From positions 1 to 41,867 of the forward strand of contig JAUCBJ010006292.1 in assembly GCA_032718475.1 (NCBI GenBank): a DNA stretch of 41,867 nt, read 5' to 3'. The DNA comes from Nemertoderma westbladi. Lineage: Eukaryota > Animalia > Xenacoelomorpha. The position numbers were made by a program, and so were the translations under genes. This document shows, one piece after another, positions 607-26,548 of this stretch. A model generated the notes under the pieces. The model did not search any database and was not told where the DNA came from. It saw nothing but the letters and a program-made list of their open reading frames with translations. The stretch's first letter is position 1; every line of letters begins with the position of its first letter.

Positions 607-810
607 ATGGTAAAGCCTCCAGGTTATAGTAAGGAGTTGATGTGCAGCAATGCGGCAAAACCGACTCCACGTCTCGCCCATAAGACCTTGTTGATACTGA
701 GTATCGCTCAACTTGGTCTGGCTGTCTTCGTCATTGCCATCGCCCATGCTGCCATGACTGTTGTCAAGGGAAGATGGGTCTCATGCGATGCAATGGCAGC
801 TGGCATCCTG
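607..810 (+). CDS. MS4A-like coding exon 1 (N-tail, TM1, start of TM2)
   Basis: aagATGG start; MVKPPGYSKELM...AMAAGIL; donor CTG|GTATGT at 811. An upstream exon cannot be excluded because the ATG directly follows ttctccaag. Confidence 0.8.
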
Positions 811-3800
811 GTATGTAATGTATATATAATGCAGCTTCAATGCAGAATGTTGATAGTATTTAGTAGTAGTATGTACTGTGCTGCGTAATTTTATTATAAT
901 AAAACTTATAAAACTGTTGCTTCTTTAGGACACGAAATTATTTACAAACTCTCTGTAGAAAATACAGATGCATTTAAATAGGCGGAATTTTATACAATAT
1001 ACAGACAAAAAGCATTACATTAATACCGGTAACTGAAAATGAAATACGGTATCTCCTCTCTTCTGGAGGGTGCGAAAAAGGGGTTTTTTATCTCACAAAG
1101 CATTTCCCACAATAATTTGTTTAATTAATTCGAATAAATAGCTGCTGTATTTTTTTAATGCTCTATTTTATATTTCAGTTTGTCATTACTGCTGTGGTGG
1201 GAATTATTGCCTCTCAACGAAAGACAAGAGGAATTGTAAGTTACAATAAATTCATGTACCAAATTAGAAATTGAAGTAAAAACTTGAGGAAACATTAATT
1301 TTAGGCAATATTATATTAAATTCAAGCACATAAAGTAAAAACTCGTACCTGTAGGTATTCAAGTATAGAAAGAAAGAACTGACAAGCAACGGACCTGGAG
1401 TTTGCAAGCAATCAGTCAGCTGACGGCAGTTACCTGATTGGTAGATTTCGCCCCGCAGGTGAAGGCATTGTCAAGAGGCCAAGTCAGTAAATTTCACTAA
1501 AGAAAAATCCCAAAGGACGAATTAAATAGTAATGTATTGAAGAGAGACGTGTACTACTGTATAACTAGGTCAGGGGTTGAGTGAATTCTTAGACCGCGAG
1601 TATTCTTAGCCCGCGGGTATTCTTAGCCCGCGAGTATTCTTAGCCCGCGAGTATTCTTAGCCCGCGAGTTAGTAAAGGAGCAGGTGAGTAAAGGAGCAGG
1701 TTTCTTGGGCGTATTGTGGGAACCAAAACAATAAACTTTATTGTTTTGCGGGCTAAGAATACTCGCGGTCTAAAAATACTCGCGGGCTAAGAATTCCTGA
1801 GACCAGCTCAGGCGGGCAGCAGCATCACAAACGCGTTTCGGCCTTTTGATGACTGACTGTTTTGCGTGCGTATATAAAACATGGCCGCAAAGGTTGTCGT
1901 GCTACGTGTAGAATATGCCGCTTACAACAATATTACTGATTAAACAAAATATATTTTATTATAATTCTAGATCATTGCGGTGCTTGTGTTGACTATTCTG
2001 AGTACTATTGTACTTTGCGTCGTTGGAGGGCTGACCTTTCGTCATATTAAAACCATCAACCGTGCTGAAAGGTAAGATATTAAAACCATCAACCGTGCTG
2101 AAAGGTAAGATATTAAAACCATCAACCGTGCTGAAAGGTAAGATATCAAAACCATCAACCGTGCTGAAAGGTAAGATATTAAAACCATCAACCATGCTGA
2201 AAGGTAAGATATTAAAACCATCAACCGTGCTGAAAGGTAAGATATTAAAACCATCAACCGTGCTGAAAGGTAAGATATTAAAACCATCAACCGTGCTGAG
2301 GTAAGATATTAAAACCATCAACCGTGCTGAAAGGTAAGATATTCAAACCATCAACCGTGCTGAGGTAAGATATTAAAACCATCAACCGTGCTGAGGTAAG
2401 ATATTAAAACCATCAACCGTGCTGAAATGTAAGATATTAAAACCATCAACCGTGCTGAGGTAAGATATTAAAACCATCAACCGTGCTGAGGTAAGATATT
2501 AAAACCATCAACCGTGCTGAGGTAAGATATTAAAACCTTCAACCGTGCTGAGGTAAGATATTAAAACCATCAACCGTGCTGAAAGGTAAGATATTAAAAC
2601 CATCAACCGTGCTGAGGTAAGATATTAAAACCATCAACCGTGCTGAGGTAAGATATTAAAACCATCAACCGTACTGAGGTAAGATATTAAAACCTTCAAC
2701 CGTGCTGAGGTAAGATATTAAAACCATCAACCGTGCTGAAAGGTAAGATATTAAAACCATCAACCGTGCTGAGGTAAGATATTAAAACCATCAACCGTGC
2801 TGAAAGTTAAGATGTTAAAACCATCAACCGTGCTGAGGTAAGATATTAAAACCATCAACCGTGCTGAAAGGTAAGATATTAAAACCTTCAACCGTGCTGA
2901 GGTAAGATATTAAAACCATCAACCGTGCTGAAAGGTAAGATATTAAAACCATCAACCGTGCTGAGGTAAGATATTAAAACCATCAACCGTGCTGAGGTAA
3001 GATATTAAAACCTTCAACCGTGCTGAGGTAAGATATTAAAACCATCAAACGTGCTGAGGTAAGATATTAAAACCATCAACCGTGCTGAAAGGTAAGATAT
3101 TAAAACAATCAACCGTGGTGCTGAAAGGTAAGATATTAAAACCATCAACCATGCTGAAAGGTTAAGATATTAAAACCACCCATCGTGCCGAAAGGTAAGT
3201 TATTAAAACCATCAACCGTGCTGAAAGGTTAAGATATTAAAACCATCAACCGTGCTGAAAGGTAAGATATTAAAACCATCAACCGTGCTGAGGTAAGATA
3301 TTAAAACCATCAACCGTGCTGAAAGGTAAGATATTAAAACCATCAACCGTGCTGAAAGGTAAGATATTAAAACCATCAACCGTGCTGAGGTAAGATTAAG
3401 ATATTAAAACCATCAACCGTGCTGAAAGGTAAGGTATTAAAACCATCAACAGTGCTGAAAGGTAAGATATTAAAACCATCAACCGTGCTGAAAGGTAAGA
3501 TATTAAAACCATCAATCGTGCCGAAAGGTAAGATATTAAAACCATCAACCGTGCTGAAAGGTAAGATATTAAAACCATCAACCGTGCTGAAAGGTAAAAT
3601 ATTAAAACCATCAGCCGTGCTGAAAGGTAAGATATTAAAACCATCAACCGTGCTGAAAGGTAAAATATTAAAACCATCAGCCGTGCTGAGGTAAGATATT
3701 AAAACCATCAACCGTGCTGAGGTAAGATATTAAAACCATCAACCGTGCTGAGGTAAGATATTAAAACCATCAACCGTGCTGAGGTAAGATTAAGATATTA

Positions 3801-6800
3801 AAACCATCAACCGTGCTGAAAGGTAAGGTATTAAAACCATCAACAGTGCTGAAAGGTAAGATATTAAAACCATCAACCGTGCTGAAAGGTAAGATATTAA
3901 AACCATCAACCGTGCTGAAAGGTAAGATATTAAAACCATCAACCGTGCTGAGGTAAGATATTAAAACCATCAATCGTGCTGAAAGGTAAGATATTAAAAC
4001 CATCAACCATGCTGAGGTAAGATATTAAAACCATTAATCGTGCTGAAAGGTAAGATATTAAAACCATCAACCATGCTGAAAGGTTAAGATATTAAAACCA
4101 TCAATCGTGCCGAAAGGTAAGATATTAAAACCATCAACCGTGCTGAAAGGTAAGATATTAAAACCATCAACCGTGCTGAAAGGTAAAATATTAAAACCAT
4201 CAGCCGTGCTGAGGTAAGATATTAAAACCATCAACCGTGCTGAGGTAAGATATTAAAACCATCAATCGTGCTGAAAGGTAAGATATTAAAACCATCAACC
4301 ATGCTGAAAGGTTAAGATATTAAAACCATCAATCGTGCCGAAAGGTAAGATATTAAAACCATCAACCGTGCTGAAAGGTAAGATATTAAAACCATCAACC
4401 GTGCTGAAAGATTAAGATATTAAAACCATCGACCGTGCTGAAAGGTAAGCTATTAAAACCATCAACCGTGCTGAAAGGTAAGATATTAAAACCATCAACC
4501 GTGCTGAAAGGTAAGATATTAAAACCATCAACCGTGCTGAAAGGTAAGATATTAAAACCATCAACCGTGCAGAAAGGTATGATATTAAAACCATCAACCG
4601 TGCTGAGGTAAGATATTAAAACCATCAACCGTGCTGAAAGGTAAGATATTAAAACCATCAACCGTGCTGAAAGGTAAGATATTAAAACCATCAACCGTGC
4701 TGAGGTAAGATATTAAAACCATCAATCGTGCTGAAAGGTAAGATATTAAAACCATCAACCATGCGGAAAGGTTAAGATATTAAAACCACCCATCGTGCCG
4801 AAAGGTAAGATATTAAAACCATCAACCGTGTTGAAAGGTTAAGATATTAAAACCATCAACCGTGCTGAAAGGTAAGATATTAAAACCATCAACCGTGCTG
4901 AAAGGTAAGATATTAAAACCATCAACCGTGCTGAGGTAAGATTAAGATATTAAAACCATCAACCGTGCTGAAAGGTAAGATATTAAAACCATCAACCGTG
5001 CTGAAAGGTAAGATATTAAAACCATCAACCGTGCTGAGGTAAGATATTAAAACCATCAACCGTGCTGAAAGGTAAGATATTAAAACCATCAACCGTGCTG
5101 AGGTAAGATATTAAAACCATCAACCGTGCTGAGGTAAGATATTAAAACCTTCAACCGTGCTGAGGTAAGATATTAAAACCATCAAACGTGCTGAGGTAAG
5201 ATATTAAAACCATCAACCGTGCTGAAAGGTAAGATATTAAAACCATCAACCGTGCTGAAAGGTAAGATATTAAAACCATCAACCGTGCTGAGGTAAGATT
5301 AAGATATTAAAACCATCAACCGTGCTGAAAGGTAAGATATTAAAACCATCAACCGTGCTGAAAGGTAAGATATTAAAACCTTCAACCGTGCTGAGGTAAG
5401 ATATTAAAACCATCAACCGTGCTGAAAGGTAAGATATTAAAACCATCAACCGTGCTGAAAGGTAAGATATTAAAACCATCAACCGTGCTGAGGTAAGATA
5501 TTAAAACCATCAATCGTGCTGAAAGGTAAGATATTAAAACCATCAACCATGCTGAGGTAAGATATTAAAACCATTAATCGTGCTGAAAGGTAAGATATTA
5601 AAACCATCAACCATGCTGAAAGGTTAAGATATTAAAACCATCAATCGTGCCGAAAGGTAAGATATTAAAACCATCAACCGTGCTGAAAGGTAAGATATTA
5701 AAACCATCAACCGTGCTGAAAGGTAAAATATTAAAACCATCAGCCGTGCTGAGGTAAGATATTAAAACCATCAACCGTGCTGAGGTAAGATATTAAAACC
5801 ATCAATCGTGCTGAAAGGTAAGATATTAAAACCATCAACCATGCTGAAAGGTTAAGATATTAAAACCATCAATCGTGCCGAAAGGTAAGATATTAAAACC
5901 ATCAACCGTGCTGAAAGGTAAGATATTAAAACCATCAACCGTGCTGAAAGATTAAGATATTAAAACCATCGACCGTGCTGAAAGGTAAGCTATTAAAACC
6001 ATCAACCGTGCTGAAAGGTAAGATATTAAAACCATCAACCGTGCTGAAAGGTAAGATATTAAAACCATCAACCGTGCTGAAAGGTAAGATATTAAAACCA
6101 TCAACCGTGCAGAAAGGTATGATATTAAAACCATCAACCGTGCTGAGGTAAGATATTAAAACCATCAACCGTGCTGAAAGGTAAGATATTAAAACCATCA
6201 ACCGTGCTGAAAGGTAAGATATTAAAACCATCAACCGTGCTGAGGTAAGATATTAAAACCATCAATCGTGCTGAAAGGTAAGATATTAAAACCATCAACC
6301 ATGCGGAAAGGTTAAGATATTAAAACCACCCATCGTGCCGAAAGGTAAGATATTAAAACCATCAACCGTGTTGAAAGGTTAAGATATTAAAACCATCAAC
6401 CGTGCTGAAAGGTAAGATATTAAAACCATCAACCGTGCTGAAAGGTAAGATATTAAAACCATCAACCGTGCTGAGGTAAGATTAAGATATTAAAACCATC
6501 AACCGTGCTGAAAGGTAAGATATTAAAACCATCAACCGTGCTGAAAGGTAAGATATTAAAACCATCAACCGTGCTGAGGTAAGATATTAAAACCATCAAC
6601 CGTGCTGAAAGGTAAGATATTAAAACCATCAACCGTGCTGAGGTAAGATATTAAAACCATCAACCGTGCTGAGGTAAGATATTAAAACCTTCAACCGTGC
6701 TGAGGTAAGATATTAAAACCATCAAACGTGCTGAGGTAAGATATTAAAACCATCAACCGTGCTGAAAGGTAAGATATTAAAACCATCAACCGTGCTGAAA

Positions 6801-9800
6801 GGTAAGATATTAAAACCATCAACCGTGCTGAGGTAAGATTAAGATATTAAAACCATCAACCGTGCTGAAAGGTAAGATATTAAAACCATCAACCGTGCTG
6901 AAAGGTAAGATATTAAAACCTTCAACCGTGCTGAGGTAAGATATTAAAACCATCAACCGTGCTGAAAGGTAAGATATTAAAACCATCAACCGTGCTGAGG
7001 TAAGATATTAAAACCATCAACCGTGCTGAGGTAAGATATTAAAACCTTCAACCGTGCTGAGGTAAGATAGTAAAACCATCAAACGTGCTGAGGTAAGATA
7101 TTAAAACCATCAACCGTGCTGAAAGGTAAGATATTAAAACCATCAACCGTGGTGCTGAAAGGTAAGATATTAAAACCATCAACCATGCTGAAAGGTTAAG
7201 ATATTAAAACCACCCATCGTGCCGAAAGGTAAGATATTAAAACCATCAACCGTGCTGAAAGGTTAAGATATTAAAACCATCAACCGTGCTGAAAGGTAAG
7301 ATATTAAAACCATCAACCGTGCTGAGGTAAGATATTAAAACCATCAACCGTGCTGAAAGGTAAGATATTAAAACCATCAACCGTGCTGAAAGGTAAGATA
7401 TTAAAACCATCAACCGTGCTGAGGTAAGATTAAGATATTAAAACCATCAACCGTGCTGAAAGGTAAGGTATTAAAACCATCAACAGTGCTGAAAGGTAAG
7501 ATATTAAAACCATCAACCGTGCTGAAAGGTAAGATATTAAAACCATCAATCGTGCCGAAAGGTAAGATATTAAAACCATCAACCGTGCTGAAAGGTAAAA
7601 TATTAAAACCATCAGCCGTGCTGAGGTAAGATATTAAAACCATCAACCGTGCTGAGGTAAGATATTAAAACCATCAACCGTGCTGAGGTAAGATTAAGAT
7701 ATTAAAACCATCAACCGTGCTGAAAGGTAAGGTATTAAAACCATCAACAGTGCTGAAAGGTAAGATATTAAAACCATCAACCGTGCTGAAAGGTAAGATA
7801 TTAAAACCATCAACCGTGCTGAAAGGTAAGATATTAAAACCATCAACCGTTCTGAGGTAAGATATTAAAACCATCAACCGTGCTGAAAGGTAAGATATTA
7901 AAACCACCCATCGTGCCGAAAGGTAAGATATTAAAACCATCAACCGTGCTGAAAGGTTAAGATATTAAAACCATCAACCGTGCTGAAAGGTAAGATATTA
8001 AAACCACCCATCGTGCCGAAAGGTAAGATATTAAAACCACCCATCGTGCCGAAAGGTAAGATATTAAAACCATAAACCGTGCTGAAAGGTTAAGATATTA
8101 AAACCATCAACCGTGCTGAAAGGTAAGATATTAAAACCATCAACCGTGCTGAAAGGTTAAGATATTAAAACCATCAACCGTGCTGAAAGGTAAGATATTA
8201 AAACCACCCATCGTGCCGAAAGGTAAGATATTAAAACCATCAACCGTGCTGAAAGGTTAAGATATTAAAACCATCAACCGTGCTGAAAGGTAAGATATTA
8301 AAACCATCAACCGTGCTGAGGTAAGATATTAAAACCATCAACCGTGCTGAAAGGTAAGATATTAAAACCATCAACCGTGCTGAAAGGTAAGATATTAAAA
8401 CCATCAACCGTGCTGAGGTAAGATTAAGATATTAAAACCATCAACCGTGCTGAAAGGTAAGGTATTAAAACCATCAACAGTGCTGAAAGGTAAGATATTA
8501 AAACCATCAACCGTGCTGAAAGGTAAGATATTAAAACCATCAATCGTGCCGAAAGGTAAGATATTAAAACCATCAACCGTGCTGAAAGGTAAAATATTAA
8601 AACCATCAGCCGTGCTGAGGTAAGATATTAAAACCATCAACCGTGCTGAGGTAAGATATTAAAACCATCAACCGTGCTGAGGTAAGATATTAAAACCATC
8701 AACCGTGCTGAGGTAAGATTAAGATATTAAAACCATCAACCGTGCTGAAAGGTAAGGTATTAAAACCATCAACAGTGCTGAAAGGTAAGATATTAAAACC
8801 ATCAACCGTGCTGAAAGGTAAGATATTAAAACCATCAACCGTGCTGAAAGGTAAGATATTAAAACCATCAACCGTTCTGAGGTAAGATATTAAAACCATC
8901 AACCGTGCTGAAAGGTAAGATATTAAAATCATCAACCGTGCTGAAAGGTAATATATTAAAACTATCAACCGTGCTGAGGTAAGATATTAAAACCTTCAAC
9001 CGTGCTGAGGTAAGATATTAAAACCATCAACCGTGCTGAAAGGTAAGATATTAAAACCATCAACCGTGCTGAAAGGTAAGATATTAAAACCACCAACCGT
9101 GCTGAGGTAAGATATTAAAACCACCAACCGTGCTGAGGTAAGATATTAAAACCATCAACCGTGCTGAGGTAAGATATTAAAACCATCAACCGTGCTGAAA
9201 GGTAAGATATTAAAACCATCAACCGTGCTGAGGTAAGATATTAAAACCATCAACCGTGCTGAGGTAAGATATTAAAACCATCAATCGTGCTGAAAGGTAA
9301 GATATTAAAACCATCAACCATGCTGAGGTAAGATATTAAAACCACCAACCGTGCTGAGGTAAGATATTAAAACCATCAACCGTGCTGAAAGGTAAGATAT
9401 TAAAACCATCAACCGTGCTGAGGTAAGATATTAAAACCATCAACCGTGCTGAGGTAAGATATTAAAACTATCAACCGTGCTGAGGTAAGATATTAAAACC
9501 TTCAACCGTGCTGAGGTAAGATATTAAAACCATCAACCGTGCTGAAAGGTAAGATATTAAAACCATCAACCGTGCTGAAAGGTAAGATATTAAAACCATC
9601 AACCGTGCTGAAAGGTAAGATATTAAAACCATCAACCGTTCTGAGGTAAGATATTAAAACCATCAACCGTGCTGAAAGGTAAGATATTAAAACCATCAAC
9701 CGTGCTGAGGTAAGATTAAGATATTAAAACCATCAACCGTGCTGAAAGGTAAGGTATTAAAACCATCAACAGTGCTGAAAGGTAAAATATTAAAACCATC

Positions 9801-12800
9801 AGCCGTGCTGAGGTAAGATATTAAAACCATCAACCGTGCTGAGGTAAGATATTAAAACCATCAATCGTGCTGAAAGGTAAGATATTAAAACCATCAACCA
9901 TGCTGAAAGGTTAAGATATTAAAACCATCAATCGTGCCGAAAGGTAAGATATTAAAACCATCAACCGTGCTGAAAGGTAAGATATTAAAACCATCAACCG
10001 TGCTGAAAGATTAAGATATTAAAACCATCAACCGTGCTGAAAGGTAAGATATTAAAACCATCAACCGTGCTGAAAGGTAAGATATTAAAACCATCAACCG
10101 TGCTGAAAGGTAAGATATTAAAACCATCAACCGTGCTGAAAGGTAAGATATTAAAACCATCAACCGTGCAGAAAGGTATGATATTAAAACCATCAACCGT
10201 GCTGAGGTAAGATATTAAAACCATCAACCGTGCTGAAAGGTAAGATATTAAAACCATCAACCGTGCTGAAAGGTAAGATATTAAAACCATCAACCGTGCT
10301 GAGGTAAGATATTAAAACCATCAATCGTGCTGAAAGGTAAGATATTAAAACCATCAACCATGCGGAAAGGTTAAGATATTAAAACCACCCATCGTGCCGA
10401 AAGGTAAGATATTAAAACCATCAACCGTGTTGAAAGGTTAAGATATTAAAACCATCAACCGTGCTGAAAGGTAAGATATTAAAACCATCAACCGTGCTGA
10501 AAGGTAAGATATTAAAACCATCAACCGTGCTGAGGTAAGATTAAGATATTAAAACCATCAACCGTGCTGAAAGATAAGATATTAAAACCATCAACCGTGC
10601 TGAAAGGTAAGATATTAAAACCATCAACCGTGCTGAGGTAAGATATTAAAACCATCAACCGTGCTGAAAGGTAAGATATTAAAACCATCAACCGTGCTGA
10701 GGTAAGATATTAAAACCATCAACCGTGCTGAGGTAAGATATTAAAACCTTCAACCGTTCTGAGGTAAGATATTAAAACCATCAAACGTGCTGAGGTAAGA
10801 TATTAAAACCATCAACCGTGCTGAAAGGTAAGATATTAAAACCATCAACCGTGCTGAAAGGTAAGATATTAAAACCATCAACCGTGCTGAGGTAAGATTA
10901 AGATATTAAAACCATCAACCGTGCTGAAAGGTAAGATATTAAAACCATCAACCGTGCTGAAAGGTAAGATATTAAAACCTTCAACCGTGCTGAGGTAAGA
11001 TATTAAAACCATCAACCGTGCTGAAAGGTAAGATATTAAAACCATCAACCGTGCTGAGGTAAGATATTAAAACCATCAACCGTGCTGAGGTAAGATATTA
11101 AAACCTTCAACCGTGCTGAGGTAAGATATTAAAACCATCAAACGTGCTGAGGTAAGATATTAAAACCATCAACCGTGCTGAAAGGTAAGATATTAAAACC
11201 ATCAACCGTGGTGCTGAAAGGTAAGATATTAAAACCATCAACCATGCTGAAAGGTTAAGATATTAAAACCACCCATCGTGCCGAAAGGTAAGATATTAAA
11301 ACCATCAACCGTGCTGAAAGGTTAAGATATTAAAACCATCAACCGTGCTGAAAGGTAAGATATTAAAACCATCAACCGTGCTGAGGTAAGATATTAAAAC
11401 CATCAACCGTGCTGAAAGGTAAGATATTAAAACCATCAACCGTGCTGAAAGGTAAGATATTAAAACCATCAACCGTGCTGAGGTAAGATTAAGATATTAA
11501 AACCATCAACCGTGCTGAAAGGTAAGGTATTAAAACCATCAACAGTGCTGAAAGGTAAGATATTAAAACCATCAACCGTGCTGAAAGGTAAGATATTAAA
11601 ACCATCAATCGTGCCGAAAGGTAAGATATTAAAACCATCAACCGTGCTGAAAGGTAAGATATTAAAACCATCAACCGTGCTGAAAGGTAAAATATTAAAA
11701 CCATCAGCCGTGCTGAAAGGTAAGATATTAAAACCATCAACCGTGCTGAAAGGTAAAATATTAAAACCATCAGCCGTGCTGAGGTAAGATATTAAAACCA
11801 TCAACCGTGCTGAGGTAAGATATTAAAACCATCAACCGTGCTGAGGTAAGATATTAAAACCATCAACCGTGCTGAGGTAAGATTAAGATATTAAAACCAT
11901 CAACCGTGCTGAAAGGTAAGGTATTAAAACCATCAACACTGCTGAAAGGTAAGATATTAAAACCATCAACCGTGCTGAGGTAAGATATTAAAACCATCAA
12001 TCGTGCTGAAAGGTAAGATATTAAAACCATCAACCATGCTGAGGTAAGATATTAAAACCATTAATCGTGCTGAAAGGTAAGATATTAAAACCATCAACCA
12101 TGCTGAAAGGTTAAGATATTAAAACCATCAATCGTGCCGAAAGGTAAGATATTAAAACCATCAACCGTGCTGAAAGGTAAGATATTAAAACCATCAACCG
12201 TGCTGAAAGGTAAAATATTAAAACCATCAGCCGTGCTGAGGTAAGATATTAAAACCATCAACCGTGCTGAGGTAAGATATTAAAACCATCAATCGTGCTG
12301 AAAGGTAAGATATTAAAACCATCAACCATGCTGAAAGGTTAAGATATTAAAACCATCAATCGTGCCGAAAGGTAAGATATTAAAACCATCAACCGTGCTG
12401 AAAGGTAAGATATTAAAACCATCAACCGTGCTGAAAGATTAAGATATTAAAACCATCAACCGTGCTGAAAGGTAAGATATTAAAACCATCAACCGTGCTG
12501 AAAGGTAAGATATTAAAACCATCAACCGTGCTGAAAGGTAAGATATTAAAACCATCAACCGTGCTGAAAGGTAAGATATTAAAACCATCAACCGTGCAGA
12601 AAGGTATGATATTAAAACCATCAACCGTGCTGAGGTAAGATATTAAAACCATCAACCGTGCTGAAAGGTAAGATATTAAAACCATCAACCGTGCTGAAAG
12701 GTAAGATATTAAAACCATCAACCGTGCTGAGGTAAGATATTAAAACCATCAATCGTGCTGAAAGGTAAGATATTAAAACCATCAACCATGCGGAAAGGTT

Positions 12801-15800
12801 AAGATATTAAAACCACCCATCGTGCCGAAAGGTAAGATATTAAAACCATCAACCGTGTTGAAAGGTTAAGATATTAAAACCATCAACCGTGCTGAAAGGT
12901 AAGATATTAAAACCATCAACCGTGCTGAAAGGTAAGATATTAAAACCATCAACCGTGCTGAGGTAAGATTAAGATATTAAAACCATCAACCGTGCTGAAA
13001 GGTAAGATATTAAAACCATCAACCGTGCTGAAAGGTAAGATATTAAAACCATCAACCGTGCTGAAAGGTAAGATATTAAAACCATCAACCGTGCTGAGGT
13101 AAGATATTAAAACCATCAACCGTGCTGAAAGGTGAGATATTAAAACCATCAACCGTGCTGAAAGGTAAGATATTAAAACCATCAACCGTGCTCAGGTAAG
13201 ATTAAGATATTAAAACCTTCAACCGTGCTGAGGTAAGATATTAAAACCATCAACCGTGCTGAAAGGTAAGATATTAAAACCATCAACCGCGGTGAAAGGT
13301 AAGATATTAAAACCATCAACCGTGCTGAAAGGTGAGATATTAAAACCATCAACCGTGCTGAGGTAAGATATTAAAACCATCAACCGTGCTGAGGTAAGAT
13401 ATTAAAACCTTCAACCGTGCTGAGGTAAGATATTAAAACCATCAACCGAGCTGAAAGGTAAGATATTAAAACCATCAACCGTGCTGAAAGGTTAAGATAT
13501 TAAAACCATCAATCGTGCTGAAAGGTAAGATATTAAAACCATCAACCGTGCTGAAAGGTAAGATATTAAAACCTTCAACCGTGCTGAGGTAAGATATTAA
13601 AACCATCAACCGTGCTGAAAGGTAAGATATTAAAACCATCAACCGTGCTGAGGTAAGATATTAAAACCATCAACCGTGCTGAGGTAAGATATTAAAACCA
13701 TCAACCGTACTGAGGTAAGATATTAAAACCTTCAACCGTGCTGAGGTAAGATATTAAAACCATCAACCGTGCTGAAAGGTAAGATATTAAAACCATCAAC
13801 CGTGCTGAGGTAAGATATTAAAACCATCAACCGTGCTGAAAGTTAAGATGTTAAAACCATCAACTGTGCTGAGGTAAGATATTAAAACCATCAACCGTGC
13901 TGAAAGGTAAGATATTAAAACCTTCAACCGTGCTGAGGTAAGATATTAAAACCATCAACCGTGCTGAAAGGTAAGATATTAAAACCATCAACCGTGCTGA
14001 GGTAAGATATTAAAACCATCAACCGTGCTGAGGTAAGATATTAAAACCTTCAACCGTGCTGAGGTAAGATATTAAAACCATCAAACGTGCTGAGGTAAGA
14101 TATTAAAACCATCAACCGTGCTGAAAGGTAAGATATTAAAACCATCAACCGTGGTGCTGAAAGGTAAGATATTAAAACCATCAACCATGCTGAAAGGTTA
14201 AGATATTAAAACCACCCATCATGCCGAAAGGTAAGATATTAAAACCATCAACCGTGCTGAAAGGTTAAGATATTAAAACCATCAACCGTGCTGAAAGGTA
14301 AGATATTAAAACCATCAACCGTGCTGAGGTAAGATATTAAAACCATCAACCGTGCTGAAAGGTAAGATATTAAAACCATCAACCGTGCTGAAAGGTAAGA
14401 TATTAAAACCATCAACCGTGCCGAGGTAAGATTAAGATATTAAAACCATCAACCGTGCTGAAAGGTAAGGTATTAAAACCATCAACAGTGCTGAAAGGTA
14501 AGATATTAAAACCATCAACCGTGCTGAAAGGTAAGATATTAAAACCATCAATCGTGCCGAAAGGTAAGATATTAAAACCATCAACCGTGCTGAAAGGTAA
14601 GATATTAAAACCATCAACCGTGCTGAAAGGTAAAATATTAAAACCATCAGCCGTGCTGAAAGGTAAGATATTAAAACCATCAACCGTGCTGAAAGGTAAA
14701 ATATTAAAACCATCAGCCGTGCTGAGGTAAGATATTAAAACCATCAACCGTGCTGAGGTAAGATATTAAAACCATCAACCGTGCTGAGGTAAGATATTAA
14801 AACCATTAACCGTGCTGAAAGGTAAGATATTAAAACCATCAACCGTGCTAAGGTAAGATTAAGATATTAAAACCATCAACCGTGCTGAAAGGTAAGGTAT
14901 TAAAACCATCAACAGTGCTGAAAGGTAAGATATTAAAACCATCAACCGTGCTGAAAGGTAAGATATTAAAACCATCAACCGTGCTGAAAGGTAAGATATT
15001 AAAACCATCAACCGTTCTGAGGTAAGATATTAAAACCATCAACCGTGCTGAAAGGTAAGATATTAAAATCATCAACCGTGCTGAAAGGTAATATATTAAA
15101 ACTATCAACCGTGCTGAGGTAAGATATTAAAACCTTCAACCGTGCTGAGGTAAGATATTAAAACCATCAACCGTGCTGAAAGGTAAGATATTAAAACCAT
15201 CAACCGTGCTGAAAGGTAAGATATTAAAACCACCAACCGTGCTGAGGTAAGATATTAAAACCACCAACCGTGCTGAGGTAAGATATTAAAACCATCAACC
15301 GTGCTGAGGTAAGATATTAAAACCATCAACCGTGCTGAGGTAAGATATTAAAACCATCAACCGTGCTGAGGTAAGATATTAAAACCATCAACCGTGCTGA
15401 AAGGTAAGATATTAAAACCATCAACCGTGCTGAGGTAAGATATTAAAACCATCAACCGTGGTGAGGTAAGATATTAAAACCATCAATCGTGCTGAAAGGT
15501 AAGATATTAAAACCATCAACCATGCTGAGGTAAGATATTAAAACAATCAATCGTGCTGAAAGGTAAGATATTAAAACCATCAACCATGCTGAAAGGTTAA
15601 GATATTAAAACCATCAATCGTGCCGAAAGGTAAGATATTAAAACCATCAACCGTGCTGAGGTAAGATATTAAAACCATCAACCGTGCTGAAAGGTAAGAT
15701 ATTAAAACCATCAACCGTGCTGAGGTAAGATATTAAAACCATCAACCGTGCTGAGGTAAGATATTAAAACCATCAATCGTGCTGAAAGGTAAGATATTAA

Positions 15801-18800
15801 AACCATCAATCGTGCTGAAAGGTAAGATATTAAAACCATCAATCGTGCTGAAAGGTAAGATATTAAAACCATCAACCATGCTGAAAGGATAAGATATTAA
15901 AACCATCAATCGTGCTGAAAGGTAAGATATTAAAACCATCAACCGTGCTGAAAGGTAAGATATTAAAACCATCAACCGTGCTGAAAGGTAAAATATTAAA
16001 ACCATCAGCCGTGCTGAGGTAAGATATTAAAACCATCAACCGTGCTGAGGTAAGATATTAAAACCATCAATCGTGCTGAAAGGTAAGATATTAAAACCAT
16101 CAACCATGCTGAAAGGTTAAGATATTAAAACCATCAATCGTGCCGAAAGGTAAGATATTAAAACCATCAACCGTGATGAAAGGTAAGATATTAAAACCAT
16201 CAACCGTGCTGAAAGGTAAGATATTAAAACCATCAACCGTGCTGAAAGGTAAGATATTAAAACCATCAACCGTGCTGAAAGGTAAGATATTAAAACCATC
16301 AACCGTGCTGAGGTAAGATATTAAAACCATCAACCGTGCTGAAAGGTAAGATATTAAAACCATCAACCGTGCTGAAAGGTATTATATTAAAACCATCAAC
16401 CGTGCTGAGGTAAGATATTAAAACCATCAACCGTGCTGAAAGGTAAGATATTAAAACCATCAACCGTGCTGAAAGGTAAGATATTAAAACCATCAACCGT
16501 GCTGAGGTAAGATATTAAAACCATCAACCGTGCTGAAAGGTAAGATATTAAAACCATCAACCGTGCCGAGGTAAGATTAAGATATTAAAACCATCAACCG
16601 TGCTGAAAGGTGAGATATTAAAACCATCAACCGTGCTGAGGTAAGATATTAAAACCATCAACCGTGCTGAGGTAAGATATTAAAACCTTCAACCGTGCTG
16701 AGGTAAGATATTAAAACCATCAACCGAGCTGAAAGGTAAGATATTAAAACCATCAACCGTGCTGAAAGGTTAAGATATTAAAACCATCAATCGTGCTGAA
16801 AGGTAAGATATTAAAACCATCAACCGTGCTGAAAGGTAAGATATTAAAACCTTCAACCGTGCTGAGGTAAGATATTAAAACCATCAACCGTGCTGAAAGG
16901 TAAGATATTAAAACCATCAACCGTGCTGAGGTAAGATATTAAAACCATCAACCGTGCTGAGGTAAGATATTAAAACCATCAACCGTACTGAGATAAGATA
17001 TTAAAACCTTCAACCGTGCTGAGGTAAGATATTAAAACCATCAACCGTGCTGAAAGGTAAGATATTAAAACCATCAACCGTGCTGAGGTAAGATATTAAA
17101 ACCATCAACCGTGCTGAAAGTTAAGATGTTAAAACCATCAACCGTGCTGAGGTAAGATATTAAAACCATCAACCGTGCTGAAAGGTAAGATATTAAAACC
17201 TTCAACCGTGCTGAGGTAAGATATTAAAACCATCAACCGTGCTGAGGTAAGATATTAAAACCATCAACCGTGCTGAAAGTTAAGATGTTAAAACCATCAA
17301 CCGTGCTGAAAGGTAAGATATTAAAACCATCAACCGTGCTGAGGTAAGATATTAAAACCATCAACCGTGCTGAGGTAAGATATTAAAACCTTCAACCGTG
17401 CTGAGGTAAGATATTAAAACCATCAAACGTGCTGAGGTAAGATATTAAAACCATCAACCGTGCTGAAAGGTAAGATATTAAAACCATCAACCGTGGTGCT
17501 GAAAGGTAAGATATTAAAACCATCAACCATGCTGAAAGGTTAAGATATTAAAACCACCCATCGTGCCGAAAGGTAAGATATTAAAACCATCAACCGTGCT
17601 GAAAGGTTAAGATATTAAAACCATCAACCGTGCTGAAAGGTAAGATATTAAAACCATCAACCGTGCTGAGGTAAGATATTAAAACCATCAACCGTGCTGA
17701 AAGGTAAGATATTAAAACCATCAACCGTGCTGAAAGGTAAGATATTAAAACCATCAACCGTGCCGAGGTAAGATTAAGATATTAAAACCATCAACCGTGC
17801 TGAAAGGTAAGGTATTAAAACCATCAACAGTGCTGAAAGGTAAGATATTAAAACCATCAACCGTGCTGAAAGGTAAGATATTAAAACCATCAATCGTGCC
17901 GAAAGGTAAGATATTAAAACCATCAACCGTGCTGAAAGGTAAGATATTAAAACCATCAACCGTGCTGAAAGGTAAAATATTAAAACCATCAGCCGTGCTG
18001 AAAGGTAAGATATTAAAACCATCAACCGTGCTGAAAGGTAAAATATTAAAACCATCAGCCGTGCTGAGGTAAGATATTAAAACCATCAACCGTGCTGAGG
18101 TAAGATATTAAAACCATCAACCGTGCTGAGGTAAGATATTAAAACCATCAACCGTGCTGAAAGGTAAGATATTAAAACCATCAACCGTGCTGAGGTAAGA
18201 TTAAGATATTAAAACCATCAACCGTGCTGAAAGGTAAGGTATTAAAACCATCAACAGTGCTGAAAGGTAAGATATTAAAACCATCAACCGTGCTGAAAGG
18301 TAAAATATTAAAACCATCAGCCGTGCTGAGGTAAGATATTAAAACCATCAACCGTGCTGAGGTAAGATATTAAAACCATCAATCGTGCTGAAAGGTAAGA
18401 TATTAAAACCATCAACCATGCTGAAAGGTTAAGATATTAAAACCATCAATCGTGCCGAAAGGTAAGATATTAAAACCATCAACCGTGCTGAAAGGTAAGA
18501 TATTAAAACCATCAACCGTGCTGAAAGATTAAGATATTAAAACCATCAACCGTGCTGAAAGGTAAGATATTAAAACCATCAACCGTGATGAAAGGTAAGA
18601 TATTAAAACCATCAACCGTGCTGAAAGGTAAGATATTAAAACCATCAACCGTGCTGAAAGGTAAGATATTAAAACCATCAACCGTGCTGAAAGGTATTAT
18701 ATTAAAACCATCAACCGTGCTGAGGTAAGATATTAAAACCATCAACCGTGCTGAAAGGTAAGATATTAAAACCATCAACCGTGCTGAAAGGTAAGATATT

Positions 18801-21800
18801 AAAACCATCAACCGTGCTGAGGTAAGATATTAAAACCATCAACCGTGCTGAAAGGTAAGATATTAAAACCATCAACCGTGCCGAGGTAAGATTAAGATAT
18901 TAAAACCATCAACCGTGCTGAAAGGTGAGATATTAAAACCATCAACCGTGCTGAGGTAAGATATTAAAACCATCAACCGTGCTGAGGTAAGATATTAAAA
19001 CCTTCAACCGTGCTGAGGTAAGATATTAAAACCATCAACCGAGCTGAAAGGTAAGATATTAAAACCATCAACCGTGCTGAAAGGTTAAGATATTAAAACC
19101 ATCAATCGTGCTGAAAGGTAAGATATTAAAACCATCAACCGTGCTGAAAGGTAAGATATTAAAACCTTCAACCGTGCTGAGGTAAGATATTAAAACCATC
19201 AACCGTGCTGAAAGGTAAGATATTAAAACCATCAACCGTGCTGAGGTAAGATATTAAAACCATCAACCGTGCTGAGGTAAGATATTAAAACCATCAACCG
19301 TACTGAGGTAAGATATTAAAACCTTCAACCGTGCTGAGGTAAGATATTAAAACCATCAACCGTGCTGAAAGGTAAGATATTAAAACCATCAACCATGCTG
19401 AGGTAAGATATTAAAACCATCAACCGTGCTGAAAGTTAAGATGTTAAAACCATCAACCGTGCTGAGGTAAGATATTAAAACCATCAACCGTGCTGAAAGG
19501 TAAGATATTAAAACCTTCAACCGTGCTGAGGTAAGATATTAAAACCATCAACCGTGCTGAAAGGTAAGATATTAAAACCATCAACCGTGCTGAGGTAAGA
19601 TATTAAAACCATCAACCGTGCTGAGGTAAGATATTAAAACCTTCAACCGTGCTGAGGTAAGATATTAAAACCATCAAACGTGCTGAGGTAAGATATTAAA
19701 ACCATCAACCGTGCTGAAAGGTAAGATATTAAAACCATCAACCGTGGTGCTGAAAGGTAAGATATTAAAACCATCAACCATGCTGAAAGGTTAAGATATT
19801 AAAACCACCCATCGTGCCGAAAGGTAAGATATTAAAACCATCAACCGTGCTGAAAGGTTAAGATATTAAAACCATCAACCGTGCTGAAAGGTAAGATATT
19901 AAAACCATCAACCGTGCTGAGGTAAGATATTAAAACCATCAACCGTGCTGAAAGGTAAGATATTAAAACCATCAACCGTGCTGAAAGGTAAGATATTAAA
20001 ACCATCAACCGTGCCGAGGTAAGATTAAGATATTAAAACCATCAACCGTGCTGAAAGGTAAGGTATTAAAACCATCAACAGTGCTGAAAGGTAAGATATT
20101 AAAACCATCAACCGTGCTGAAAGGTAAGATATTAAAACCATCAATCGTGCCGAAAGGTAAGATATTAAAACCATCACCCGTGCTGAAAGGTAAGATATTA
20201 AAACCATCAACCGTGCTGAAAGGTAAAATATTAAAACCATCAGCCGTGCTGAAAGGTAAGATATTAAAACCATCAACCGTGCTGAAAGGTAAAATATTAA
20301 AACCATCAGCCGTGCTGAGGTAAGATATTAAAACCATCAACCGTGCTGAGGTAAGATATTAAAACCATCAACCGTGCTGAGGTAAGATATTAAAACCATC
20401 AACCGTGCTGAAAGGTAAGATATTAAAACCATCAACCGTGCTGAGGTAAGATTAAGATATTAAAACCATCAACCGTGCTGAAAGGTAAGGTATTAAAACC
20501 ATCAACAGTGCTGAAAGGTAAGATATTAAAACCATCAACCGTGCTGAAAGGTAAGATATTAAAACCATCAACCGTGCTGAAAGGTAAGATATTAAAACCA
20601 TCAACCGTTCTGAGGTAAGATATTAAAACCATCAACCGTGCTGAAAGGTAAGATATTAAAATCATCAACCGTGCTGAAAGGTAATATATTAAAACTATCA
20701 ACCGTGCTGAGGTAAGATATTAAAACCTTCAACCGTGCTGAGGTAAGATATTAAAACCATCAACCGTGCTGAAAGGTAAGATATTAAAACCATCAACCGT
20801 GCTGAAAGGTAAGATATTAAAACCACCAACCGTGCTGAGGTAAGATATTAAAACCACCAACCGTGCTGAGGTAAGATATTAAAACCATCAACCGTGCTGA
20901 GGTAAGATATTAAAACCATCAACCGTGCTGAGGTAAGATATTAAAACCATCAACCGTGCTGAGGTAAGATATTAAAACCATCAACCGTGCTGAAAGGTAA
21001 GATATTAAAACCATCAACCGTGCTGAGGTAAGATATTAAAACCATCAACCGTGGTGAGGTAAGATATTAAAACCATCAATCGTGCTGAAAGGTAAGATAT
21101 TAAAACCATCAACCATGCTGAGGTAAGATATTAAAACCATCAATCGTGCTGAAAGGTAAGATATTAAAACCATCAACCATGCTGAAAGTTTAAGATATTA
21201 AAACCATCAATCGTGCCGAAAGGTAAGATATTAAAACCATCAACCGTGCTGAGGTAAGATATTAAAACCATCAACCGTGCTGAAAGGTAAGATATTAAAA
21301 CCATCAACCGTGCTGAGGTAAGATATTAAAACCATCAACCGTGCTGAGGTAAGATATTAAAACCATCAATCGTGCTGAAAGGTAAGATATTAAAACCATC
21401 AATCGTGCTGAAAGGTAAGATATTAAAACCATCAATCGTGCTGAGGTAAGATATTAAAACCATCAATCGTGCTGAAAGGTAAGATATTAAAACCATCAAT
21501 CGTGCTGAAAGGTAAGATATTAAAACCATCAATCGTGCTGAAAGGTAAGATATTAAAACCATCAACCATGCTGAAAGGTTAAGATATTAAAACCATCAAT
21601 CGTGCTGAAAGGTAAGATATTAAAACCATCAACCGTGCTGAAAGGTAAGATATTAAAACCATCAACCGTGCTGAAAGGTAAAATATTAAAACCATCAGCC
21701 GTGCTGAGGTAAGATATTAAAACCATCAACCGTGCTGAGGTAAGATATTAAAACCATCAATCGTGCTGAAAGGTAAGATATTAAAACCATCAACCATGCT

Positions 21801-24800
21801 GAAAGGTTAAGATATTAAAACCATCAATCGTGCCGAAAGGTAAGATATTAAAACCATCAACCGTGCTGAAAGGTAAGATATTAAAACCATCAACCGTGCT
21901 GAAAGATTAAGATATTAAAACCATCAACCGTGCTGAAAGGTAAGATATTAAAACCATCAACCGTGATGAAAGGTAAGATATTAAAACCATCAACCGTGCT
22001 GAAAGGTAAGATATTAAAACCATCAACCGTGCTGAAAGGTAAGATATTAAAACCATCAACCGTGCTGAAAGGTATTATATTAAAACCATCAACCGTGCTG
22101 AGGTAAGATATTAAAACCATCAACCGTGCTGAAAGGTAAGATATTAAAACCATCAACCGTGCTGAAAGGTAAGATATTAAAACCATCAACCGTGCTGAGG
22201 TAAGATATTAAAACCATCAATCGTGCTGAAAGGTAAGATATTAAAACCATCAACCATGCGGAAAGGTTAAGATATTAAAACCACCCATCGTGCCGAAAGG
22301 TAAGATATTAAAACCATCAACCGTGTTGAAAGGTTAAGATATTAAAACCATCAACCGTGCTGAAAGGTAAGATATTAAAACCATCAACCGTGCTGAAAGG
22401 TAAGATATTAAAACCATCAACCGTGCTGAGGTAAGATTAAGATATTAAAACCATCAACCGTGCTGAAAGGTAAGATATTAAAACCATCAACCGTGCTGAA
22501 AAGTAAGATATTAAAACCATCAACCGTGCTGAAAGGTAAGATATTAAAACCATCAACCGTGCTGAGGTAAGATATTAAAACCATCAACCGTGCTGAAAGG
22601 TAAGATATTAAAACCATCAACCGTGCTGAAAGGTAAGATATTAAAACCATCAACCGTGCTGAGGTAAGATTAAGATATTAAAACCATCAACCGTGCTGAA
22701 AGGTAAGGTATTAAAACCATCAACCGTGCTGAAAGGTAAGATATTAAAACCATCAACCGTGCTGGAGGTAAGATATTAAAACCATCAACCGTGCTGAAAG
22801 GTAAGATATTAAAACCATCAACCGTGCTGAAAGGTAAGATATTAAAACCATCAACCGTGCTGAGGTAAGATATTAAAACCATCAACCGTGCTGAGGTAAG
22901 ATATTAAAACCATCAACCGTGCTGAAAGGTATGATATTAAAACCATCAGCCGTGCTGAGGTAAGATATTAAAACCTTCAACCGTGCTGAGGTAAGATATT
23001 AAAACCATCAACCGTGCTGAAAGGTAAGATATTAAAACCATCAACCGTGCTGAGGTAAGATATTAAAACCTTCAACCGTGCTGAGGTAAGATATTAAAAC
23101 CATCAACCGTGCTGAAAGGTAAGATATTAAAACCATCAGCCGTGCTGAGGTAAGATATTAAAACCTTCAACCGTGCTGAGGTAAGATATTAAAACCATCA
23201 ACCGTGCTGAAAGGTAAGATATTAAAACCATCAACCGCGGTGAAAGGTAAGATATTAAAACCATCAACCGTGCTGAAAGGTGAGATATTAAAACCATCAA
23301 CCGTGCTGAGGTAAGATATTAAAACCATCAACCGTGCTGAGGTAAGATATTAAAACCTTCAACCTCAGGTAAAATATAGACCTGGAAATACTACATGACA
23401 CCTTGTATGTCCGCAATTTACCTCTTTACCATAGGCTGCCACTGTACTCAACCCTACCGTACTTGGCCGTCTTTAACCACTCGCTACAATGTAAGGATAG
23501 TGTATATTAACCATGAACCATCACGGCCACAATGATTAATTATACATTCTAGCTACTAAATTAGGTAGGACAGTTACACTCATAGAGAATTGCGACCGGT
23601 ATATTTATAGTTTATTATTGTTACTTCGAGTTATTCGATTCGAGTATTAGTTACTTCCAACCCGGAGGTTACCGGTTCGAGCCCACCTGGACGTCATTGC
23701 TGACTTCGCAAAAGCTGTGCCCAACAAACAGTTATAATAATATGAAGCCACTCATTCACCCATAACACCAATAATAAACCTTAGTTTGTATCATAAAATG
23801 TTCAATAATGTTGGTCCCTGAAGATAAAATTACACCTTAGTATTTTTATGTACAATTAAATATATAAATAAGATATAATGTTACGGGCATATAAAACGAG
23901 GAACCAAATAAATATCTGTACTTTTTATTTTTAGATATCGATACGATTATATGGATGACATCATATACCCAGATGGTTAGTATTGTATTATTGTGGGGCG
24001 AGTCAAAACTGCGAGCCATGAGCGAGCTGTTATAATTATACTATGGCCGTTTTCCAAACGTCTGTTAGTCTGTGGGGGTGTGTCCGGGTATGTGTGTGTC
24101 GGAAGCCATAATTGTCGGAAGCCAAGATCTGAATAGGCCTATGCAGTATAACTAGCCATAATAAAATTATAATTGTTCGCTAATATGGCTTGCAGCTTTT
24201 GCTGCACGAAGCAAAATTGTGTAATTCCCGTATATTTTAGAATATAAGTCACTTTTTAGATGAGCTGTTTGCCACGATTTGGGACGTTTAATAAACTTAT
24301 TTATTTTGCAGATGATCTGGTTTTCCAGGAGGGACGAATTCACATTGACTTCGGGCGATTATGTGACAGAATGCCAAACTCCGAAGGTTGCAAAGAAATG
24401 GTCAGACAAGCATTGGTCTACGTCAACTATATGCTTGACAATGTTGATATCGGACAAATGCTCGAAAATGTTGATATCGACCAAATTATGAATAACCTAA
24501 ATTTCGACGAGATATTGAACAACATGAATCTCGATGAGTTGATGGCAAATTTCGGAAATATCGATCTCGAACACTTCGATATGGAACAGGTGCAACAATT
24601 CCTCCAGGATTCAGGGTGAGTAGTTTTAGTGATTATAAGTAATAGTTGATACAAGTTCAGTTCCTGATGAGTATTGCAACAAACCTTGCTGTGTGTTTTT
24701 AATACAATTTGGCTTTTCGGTTATTTTTCTTATATATTTTTTGCTAAAACATACAGTAGGCAGGCCCCTACATAATACTGTAACAGGACGGGTTTTTGTT

Positions 24801-26548
24801 CTAATTTTCATGTTTTGTATTCCAGCAGTTCCCCCAACAAGGGGAGTTTAAGCTTTAATCCATTTAGATCCCAGAACTTTCATTTCTTGCATCTAACGTC
24901 GAGTTTTCTTTCTCCTGTGCCTATTTAAGGAACATGTTTGACATACAACTAACACTCGAACACTGACTGCACCAGTGTTACACACATATAAGTTCGAAGG
25001 AGTCAACCGATTACCATGTAACCAGAAACCCAAGTTTACATCTATGTCTCGCTTAATTTATAGATTGGGAGATCTTTTTGGACACCAGGGCGATGACCGA
25101 AAACGCCGAGGTCTTGGCGACAATCTCTTTGATGGTCACAAGGGCAACAGTCACGAATTCCGAGACAAGCACGATTTCAAGAAGATGTTCACCTCGATTG
25201 CACGCGATCCCTACCGCGGACAACAGATTAGAGATTCTGACGAACTCCTGAATGTGAGTTTTTGTTATTGCGCTGTTCGGTAGACCTATCATATGATTTT
25301 ATCAAAGTTTTATTGTACTGTACTTCATTCGCAAATCATGTTGGAATTTTACAAACGTAAAGTATTCGTTTTTATTCAAAACTTGAAACATTACCCTTAC
25401 GTTTTTTATACTATGAAAACATATCGGCGGGGTTAGCTCAGTTGGTTGACCACCGGTCCTACAATCAATAAGTGGTTGTAGGTGTAGGTTCAGCCCCGCC
25501 CTGGTCCACTCAGCCTTTTAATAACTGTGACCAGTTTAATTACTGGGAGCAAAACATGGGATGAGAGTAGCGCCTTACTGCAATAAATTACATTAATCGA
25601 GTATAAATGAATCTTGTAGGCTTATTTAATTAATTATAGTTTATGAGTGGTGTTAATAATTAATTAATTAATCATTAATTAATTATGAAATCCACATTTA
25701 CTACAAACATACAGGACTTCCACGAGCAGTATTGTAAATACGGTATCAATTCCTCATTCCAAAGAAAAATGTGATAACGTAATTAGGTCTACTTAACTAA
25801 ACTTGGAGCATTTTGTACGTTCCAATATGGCTACCGGTACTTCTCATACTTTACTTGGCCTAACCTTCCACAGAAACTCCGCTGCTCCGTTTACGCGGCC
25901 CTCGCTTGTTTGGCCGTCTACTTCATTCTCAGCATCGTGGTTATCGTGATCCTTTCCGTGGCGGTCTGCTGCATGAAGCCTGGATCTACTTCAATGGTCT
26001 CCTCTGCCTACGCCACACCACTCCCGCCACCCCCGAGCTACACTGCGCCGCCGATAACTCCCGAAGGTATTCTAGATTTTAAAGTAATATTTAACTATAA
26101 AATGTAACTAATAATATGTTGCATGTTAAAATCATGTAAACAATATATTATATTGAAACACTATGCTTATTATTAACATTTACTATGGCTTGAGATTTGG
26201 ATTACTGTAGAATTTAATTATTTACAATAATGGTAACTAAATTAATCTTTCTTTAATTGATTTATACATTTAGTTACCAATCCACGTGACAATGGAGCCA
26301 AGAGCAACCTGCCATTTATTGTCATACCTGCTGCACCGGGTGTAGATCGCAAAGGTTAGTTTGCTTTGAATCGGGATTGTAAATACCTACAAATATATAT
26401 ATTTGGGATTGGAAATTATATCCAAGGTACATTAATTATATCCAAATCAGGATAGAAGTGATATAAAACAGGACATTTTTCAGTTTATTCTAATATGCCG
26501 CACTTTTATTTTGTTTTTTTTATCTACACAGGTCAATACATCGTTTGA
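607..26548 (+). CDS. Spliced gene for an MS4A/CD20-like four-transmembrane protein, 395 aa; join(607..810,1179..1235,1971..2071,23935..23975,24312..24615,25064..25253,25874..26066,26274..26354,26532..26548)
   Basis: All 8 introns are GT-AG with phases 0,0,2,1,2,0,1,1 that chain into one open 1188-nt frame. Four hydrophobic segments. KTLLILSIAQLGLAVFVIAIA and AGIL|FVITAVVGIIASQRKTRGI|IIAV resemble CD20 KTLGAVQIMNGLFHIALG and GGIM|YIISGSLLAATEKNSRKCL|VKG, including a 57-nt phase-0/0 exon (CD20 comparison recalled, not searched). CC follows TM4. Confidence 0.85.
1179..1235 (+). CDS. MS4A-like exon 2 (57 nt, FVITAVVGIIASQRKTRGI)
   Basis: Acceptor tatttcag|, donor ATT|GTAAGT, phase 0/0. Confidence 0.88.
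1575..1804. mobile_element. 230-bp MITE-like element in intron 2 with inverted subterminal 17-bp repeats
   Basis: About 5 x GAGTATTCTTAGCCCGC on the left and about 3 inverted copies at 1748-1797; GG...CC termini; flanks AGGTCAGG / AGCTCAGG (8-bp TSD with 1 mismatch); internal palindrome AAAACAATAAACTTTATTGTTTT. Confidence 0.65.
1971..2071 (+). CDS. MS4A-like exon 3 (TM3; IIAVLVLTILSTIVLCVVGGLTFRHIKTINRAE-R); its 3' end is the first unit of the satellite
   Basis: Acceptor ataattctag|, donor AAG|GTAAGA at 2072; phase 0 in and phase 2 out, matching exon 4. Confidence 0.85.
2044..23377. repeat. 21.3-kb tandem array, about 650 units (estimated from length); 33-bp ATATTAAAACCATCAACCGTGCTGAAAGGTAAG and 31-bp ...GCTGAGGTAAG, with rarer 34/36/37-bp variants
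   Basis: Directly visible; highly homogeneous; no unique spacers. Confidence 0.99.
23660..23780 (+). mobile_element. Possible 5'-truncated tRNA-derived SINE fragment
   Basis: Pol III B-box GGTTCGAGCCC at 23674-23684; no A-box seen; boundaries uncertain. Confidence 0.35.
23935..23975 (+). CDS. MS4A-like exon 4 (41 nt, YRYDYMDDIIYPD)
   Basis: Acceptor ctttttatttttag|, donor ATG|GTTAGT; phase 2 in and phase 1 out, exactly bridging exons 3 and 5. Confidence 0.78.
23988..24220 (+). mobile_element. DINE-1/HINE-like (non-autonomous Helentron-type) element in intron 4
   Basis: Subterminal inverted repeats CTGCGAGCCAT (24009-24019) and ATGGCTTGCAG (24185-24195); GTCT/GT microsatellite-like tract; 3' stem-loop TTTTGC...GCAAAA (24197-24216). 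Confidence 0.5.
24312..24615 (+). CDS. MS4A-like exon 5 (acidic loop with 9-aa repeats)
   Basis: Acceptor ttattttgcag|, donor AGG|GTGAGT; lies in ORF 24260..24619. Confidence 0.85.
25064..25253 (+). CDS. MS4A-like exon 6 (contains RKRR)
   Basis: Acceptor aatttatag|, donor AAT|GTGAGT; lies in ORF 24975..25283; phase 2/0. Confidence 0.83.
25426..25640 (+). mobile_element. tRNA-derived SINE in intron 6
   Basis: A-box TAGCTCAGTTGG, degenerate B-box GGTTCAGCCCC, then a CCACTCAGCCTT core and an AT-rich tail; I could not fold it into an intact cloverleaf. Confidence 0.6.
25874..26066 (+). CDS. MS4A-like exon 7 (TM4, CC, PPPPSY)
   Basis: Acceptor ccttccacag|, donor AAG|GTATTC; KLRCSVYAALACLAVYFILSIVVIVILSVAVCCMKP... 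Confidence 0.88.
26274..26354 (+). CDS. MS4A-like exon 8 (VTNPRDNGAKSNLPFIVIPAAPGVDRK)
   Basis: Acceptor tacatttag|, donor AAG|GTTAGT; phase 1/1, open frame. Confidence 0.75.
26532..26548 (+). CDS. MS4A-like terminal coding exon (GQYIV-stop)
   Basis: Long T tract plus tctacacag| acceptor; TGA at 26546-26548. Confidence 0.72.

Follow-up and report, generated by a model that had tools for sequence, protein, structure and literature searches.

The third intron of a predicted four-transmembrane gene in Nemertoderma westbladi opens with a minisatellite of about 21 kb in which the exon 3/intron 3 boundary has been copied hundreds of times. With a first unit that spans the boundary and a donor that is repeated within the intron, it is an exon-intron boundary minisatellite of the kind described for F7 and for the amphioxus 'mirages', and a very large one. 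An earlier note on this DNA had read the in-frame stop codon exposed behind the first donor as a built-in poison switch, making the array an attenuator of expression. That interpretation is partly supported overall, most of its sequence observations being sound, and the switch itself mostly does not hold. The account that probably applies is a neutral expansion of a boundary minisatellite in which the stop is a by-product of the donor consensus, splicing takes place at the first donor and rare leak is cleared by NMD. The window, that is the whole stretch of DNA analysed, comprises 41,867 nt (contig JAUCBJ010006292.1 of assembly GCA_032718475.1, positions 1 to 41,867 of the forward strand), and the coordinates of its main features are collected in Table 1.

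Table 1. Coordinates of the predicted four-transmembrane (TM) gene, its donors and the minisatellite within the window
Feature	Position	Strand	Remarks
Exon 1, coding part	607..810	+	ATG at 607; TM1 and start of TM2; predicted from sequence
Exon 2	1179..1235	+	AG/GT boundaries, phase 0
Exon 3	1971..2071	+	TM3; ends at donor 1; the repeat unit takes its exon part from the last 28 nt
Donor 1, AAG/GTAAGA	2069..2077	+	phase 2; 7/9 consensus matches
Intron 3	2072..23934	+	21,863 nt, phase 2
In-frame TAA	2073..2075	+	intron positions +2 to +4 of donor 1
Minisatellite	2044..23378	+	653 complete units of 31-37 bp; 28 exon nt + GTAAG; about 21 kb
Donor 2	2102..2110	+	same as donor 1; cut after 2104
Exact 1605-nt tandem duplication in array	3854..6998	+	3854-5458 equals 5394-6998
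Degenerate last unit	23365..23378	+	ends in donor-like site and ATAT, followed by unique intron
Exon 4	23935..23975	+	donor GTTAGT gives stop as first intronic codon
Exon 5	24312..24615	+	phase-2 donor GTGAGT gives immediate TGA
Exon 6	25064..25253	+	
Exon 7	25874..26066	+	TM4 and proline-rich PPSY tail
Exon 8	26274..26354	+	donor GTTAGT gives stop as first intronic codon
Exon 9, coding part	26532..26548	+	natural stop; AATAAA/ATTAAA cluster at 27100-27149

From the sequence alone nine coding exons of a spliced animal gene are predicted on the + strand, and in this predicted model the exons, when joined by script, form a 395-codon open frame with eight GT-AG introns. Hydropathy peaks corresponding to four helices lie at residues 28-46, 62-80, 87-105 and 308-326, giving an MS4A/CD20-like topology with four transmembrane segments, three of them N-terminal, a large second loop and the fourth near the C-terminus. 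Membership of the MS4A/CD20 family is only a lead: Atlas leads at 0.77-0.89 pointed to CD20 clusters (14% and 46% of members) and to a FAM70 cluster (23%), five single exons gave nothing above the curated cutoff in Pfam, CD20 (PF04103) included, exon 1 had no match among 1.84 billion representatives and in a homologue search with exon 5 against longer proteins none of 44 candidates reached E≤10. At 24431-24600 exon 5 encodes a degenerate acidic Asn/Asp/Leu-rich repeat, with a 27-bp period at 24431-24486, that lies in the large loop of the four-transmembrane protein. Treatment of exons 4-9 as a separate gene was rejected, as they continue only in the frame of donor 1, the others being closed by stops at codons 7 and 72; an extra exon candidate near 25715 was also rejected because it breaks the phase. 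Intron 2 holds inverted 17-bp repeats at 1585-1794 that resemble a small foldback (MITE-like) element.

Beyond donor 1 the frame of exons 1-3 reads GAA (2067-2069), AGG (2070-2072) and TAA (2073-2075), and re-reading of these codons bears out the stop that had been placed there. After donor 2 further copies would cut after 2137, 2170, 2203, 2236, 2269 and 2300; donors 2-7 have exactly the sequence of donor 1, and the exons resulting from their use are only 134-299 nt long. When each GT of the downstream array was taken as the donor, all 1294 gave the same 121-aa product, which includes three hydropathy peaks and lacks the fourth helix (308-326), exactly the three-transmembrane truncation that the earlier note had described, and in this comparison the 395-codon frame was kept by donor 1 only. 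With donor 2 the predicted distance from the stop is 29 nt to the first junction and 70 nt to the exon 4/5 junction, and for all 1294 GTs a premature stop at least 70 nt upstream of a later junction is predicted, in agreement with the NMD-type position that had been proposed. In every case (1294/1294) an in-frame stop separates the downstream donor from the authentic one, as in latent splice sites. The last donor was rejected as the true donor, the stop lying upstream of it, and if exon 3 were skipped, translation would be predicted to stop after 94 aa. A degree of leak to donors 2-3 would be plausible, since donors 2-7 do not differ from donor 1 and since, by analogy, two pseudo-sites are used besides the authentic donor in human 6-16 and CBS (PMC1557585). 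The products of such leak would not form the uniform ladder expected of a 33-bp unit throughout, since unit lengths range from 31 to 37 bp and steps of +33 are found six times only, the sizes that follow being +229, +262 and +293.

An important consideration is whether a stop in this position is more than would be expected of any donor. It is not above chance, and it is part of the donor consensus GTAAG. A phase-2 donor of the form GT(A/G)A always has TAA or TGA as its first intronic codon, the same situation as here, which in the accessible text of its source is discussed for intron retention in Drosophila (PMC2809761). A stop is the first intronic codon in four of the eight introns of the gene, three of them without an array: both phase-2 introns (3 and 5) open in this way, and so do the phase-1 introns 4 and 8, each with a GTTAGT donor. 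This recurrence in the array-free introns 4, 5 and 8 tells against a built-in switch. As a local null, sites with at least 6/9 matches to the donor consensus were collected from the eight remaining introns in the two genes of the window (the four-transmembrane gene and the neighbouring Hsp90), and 44 of these 45 donor-like sites were preceded by an in-frame stop. Donor-spanning duplications comprising 10-41 nt of exon and 5-15 nt of intron were simulated at the window's eight other donors and broke the frame in 2291 of 2816 cases (411 of 936 among units of 3n length) and always did so at a phase-2 GTAA donor (352/352); the real 28+5 geometry broke it at four of the eight. Of the human latent donors in coding introns, more than 98% have an upstream in-frame stop; within 1 kb of the donor the share is 91% (PMC3510495). 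The TAA of unit 1 lies at the authentic donor and therefore likely predates the array, although no orthologue was found to confirm the order of stop and phase.

The first unit occupies 2044-2076, with 28 exon nt and 5 intron nt on either side of the exon 3/intron 3 boundary. Of the complete units 360 are 33 bp long, 210 are 31 bp, 49 are 34 bp, 27 are 37 bp, six are 36 bp and one is 32 bp. The element AG/GTAAG is intact in 560 of the 653, with 83-89% intact in every tenth of the array, and in 41 units insertion of a T has changed the donor to GTTAAG. Just over half of the 33-mers (198 of 360) are equal to unit 1 and their mean divergence is 2.1%; the array is young or homogenised. There are 62 unit types, and variants recur in imperfect multi-kb higher-order blocks which, in the one haplotype available, point to past turnover. 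The exact 1605-nt tandem duplication is twice as long as the second-longest exact repeat (802 nt) and represents either a very recent event or an assembly error. A coding function for the repeat was rejected, with 450-655 stops in each of the six frames and a longest open stretch of 117 codons, as was a strong RNA structure of the unit, three units folding at -13.1 kcal/mol (no shuffle control).

The element ATAT occurs in the exon at 2044-2047 and again behind the donor at 2077-2080, 33 nt away. The degenerate last unit is likely to represent the original start of the intron and, together with the two ATAT copies, would fit a first slippage event between them. It may thus be envisaged that the first duplication arose between these two microhomologies and that the array subsequently grew by block duplication, through slippage and unequal crossing-over that were likely neutral. 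Donor 1 would remain dominant because it is the earliest strong donor after the acceptor of exon 3, and NMD would act as a general safety net that clears leak rather than as a regulated output; such cover may explain why the array is tolerated, with no switch implied.

Selection on the copied donors was assessed in 570 units, those 33 or 31 bp long, the 83 units of other lengths being left out. There were 39 distinct substitution alleles, of which eight lay in the 7-nt donor core against 8.3 expected (p=1.0), two in the TAA against 3.5 and four in the ATTAAA hexamer against 7.1, in a test of low power given that the alleles are few and non-independent and that indel variants were excluded. By this weak test there is neither retention nor purging of the copied donors, the core varying like the rest of the unit, and no special conservation or selection of the stop-bearing element was seen among the array alleles of this one species.

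The surroundings are also prone to repeats: 15 other merged tandem-repeat rows cover 31% of the window outside the array. An intact cytosolic Hsp90 gene encoding 722 aa lies at 33927-41063, with at most 80% identity for its exon 2 among the 120 matches listed of 7995 scored. Its one coding intron (34350-39317, about 5 kb) is long for a heat-shock gene and is filled with arrays of 49, 30, 72 and 68 bp. By eye, the 49-bp array occurs there twice in opposite orientation (35162-35311 and 36871-37335), and stretches near 34900-35150 recur inverted near 38680-38810 in the manner of nested foldback elements. A 21-bp array at 27571-28048 and 28740-28801 has near-identical flanks (about 27520-28070 and 28720-28840) around a central stretch and is possibly an element with internal repeats. 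Between both genes lies a 3.6-kb compound satellite (29238-32833) with units of 39, 25 and 29 bp that share one core and are strongly A-skewed.

Other routes through the array have also to be considered. A YAG precedes only two of 561 copied donors and the upstream T fraction is 0.17, compared with 0.28-0.72 at the eight real acceptors; on these grounds recursive splicing via AG/GT appears unlikely, and recursive splicing or a new intron arising from this element was rejected for want of a pyrimidine tract. The claim that donors 2 onwards cannot add peptide repeats, and its extension that the array can only divert transcripts to decay or truncation, hold for the donors, as every downstream one leads to the stop, but 20 of 3758 internal acceptor-donor pairs are in-frame and stop-free, and microexons would thus constitute a formal exception. 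The ten pairs that were printed are microexons of 9 or 12 nt. Candidates at 3453-3461 and 3615-3626 and 18 similar sites pair a CAG acceptor, which variant units create within their exon-derived part, with a copied donor and have no pyrimidine tract.

A number of boundary minisatellites have been described, with 5-9 copies in F7, 25 pseudo-sites in 6-16, 15-20 copies in CBS intron 13, 10-15 in LMNB2 and 16-18 in PDGF intron 4, and in the 37-bp VNTR of F7 intron 7 the downstream donors, though identical and functional, stay silent, the most upstream being used and only the next one being activated when the first is knocked out (PMC1557585). As far as the accessible text of that source goes, the array described here resembles all five in having a first unit that spans the exon/intron boundary, a donor that is repeated in the intron and a unit of 30-40 bp. 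It differs from F7 in having 653 units (the others have at most 25), in the large exon share of its unit (28 of 33 nt, compared with 4 of 37) and in placing every downstream donor behind a stop, which by the same text is not the case for two F7 pseudo-sites. The amphioxus 'mirages' of Adh3 and the globin genes are likewise tandem copies of exon-intron boundaries in an invertebrate with edge units that diverge from a homogenised core, like the last unit of the present array; the accessible text reports that they are length-unstable and that RT-PCR showed normal splicing, and unlike the present array they comprise 3-6 units of about 155 bp in BflGb6 and units of 10-72 bp in Adh3 (PMC3087553). 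A further likeness is to latent 5' splice sites, unused intronic donors that add a premature stop and whose products go to NMD when their use is forced, although in the text available those are scattered chance matches, about nine per intron, in contrast to some 560 exact copies with exon context here (PMC3510495). No donor array of hundreds of copies, and none shown to act as an NMD attenuator, was found in the literature searched, which mostly excluded subscription papers. The analogy with the precedents would be limited, as they have 3-25 copies and are mammalian or from amphioxus, compared with about 650 units here. In regulated unproductive splicing, which involves poison exons and alternative 5' splice sites, for instance in SR-protein genes, the elements are conserved and regulated. 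The array shares with it a predicted premature stop upstream of later junctions should an alternative site be used, and differs in that conservation, a selection signal and a regulator were not found here.

The possibility that the array is a functional attenuator, in which competing donors would send to NMD a regulated share of transcripts set by array length or stress, is considered improbable. It could draw on the 560 intact donors, on the NMD-type stop predicted for all 1294 downstream GTs, on the two pseudo-sites used in 6-16 and CBS and on the reported activation of latent human donors by heat shock, with products that are NMD targets (PMC3510495). However, the stop needs no special explanation, neither the donor core nor the TAA gives a selection signal in the allele counts, and the F7 pseudo-sites are reported to be silent even when strengthened (PMC1557585). 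From exon definition it would also be expected that products of exon size come from the first few copies alone and that hundreds more add nothing to donor competition. A similarly low probability attaches to the view that assembly has exaggerated an array whose ends are real, or that the array is a recent harmful allele that has crippled splicing of this gene copy. The exact 1605-nt duplication and the closeness of the 33-mers to one another and to unit 1 speak for this view, as does the stop after 94 aa predicted for skipping of exon 3, skipping being the failure mode of F7 mutants (PMC1557585). The 62 unit types and recurring imperfect blocks, with a next longest exact repeat of only 802 nt, look instead like real turnover, and there is no damage to the reading frame, to any of the eight GT-AG pairs or to the poly(A) signals.

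Internal polyadenylation is raised by the hexamer ATTAAA, which occurs 646 times in the array and 14 times in the rest of the window and starts 2 nt after 530 of the 560 intact donors. Were U1 limiting, cleavage within the array might yield a stable mRNA for the 121-aa three-transmembrane protein that escapes NMD, a switch to which slightly less probability still is given. The hexamer is nothing more than two exon 3 codons, for Ile and Lys, no U/GU-rich element follows it (the downstream 35 nt are only 21% T) and its deficit of alleles is too small a count to read. In telescripting, U1 bound beside a poly(A) site suppresses cleavage, and the U1 adjacent to each hexamer would be expected to do the same. 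Escape from NMD by intronic polyadenylation has nevertheless been described in human genes, according to the accessible text (PMC13187750). There is an equally small chance that the array is a length-tunable dial, in which U1 supply or array length would shift the balance between the four-transmembrane protein, NMD-bound transcripts and the polyadenylated 121-aa mRNA.

On the preferred reading, neutral expansion with splicing at donor 1, the stop codon itself is already known and ordinary and contributes nothing new; the array is set apart by its size. The ATTAAA that lies 2 nt behind nearly all the intact donors makes the array a possible test case for the protection by U1 against intronic polyadenylation. 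The array amounts to a natural stress test of first-donor choice, with about 560 intact copies compared with at most 25 in published cases, as given in the accessible text. If donor 1 is used cleanly, then selection of the most upstream donor holds at a 20-fold larger scale and beyond amphioxus and the mammals; should leak or internal polyadenylation increase with the length of the array, the satellite would be an expression dial.
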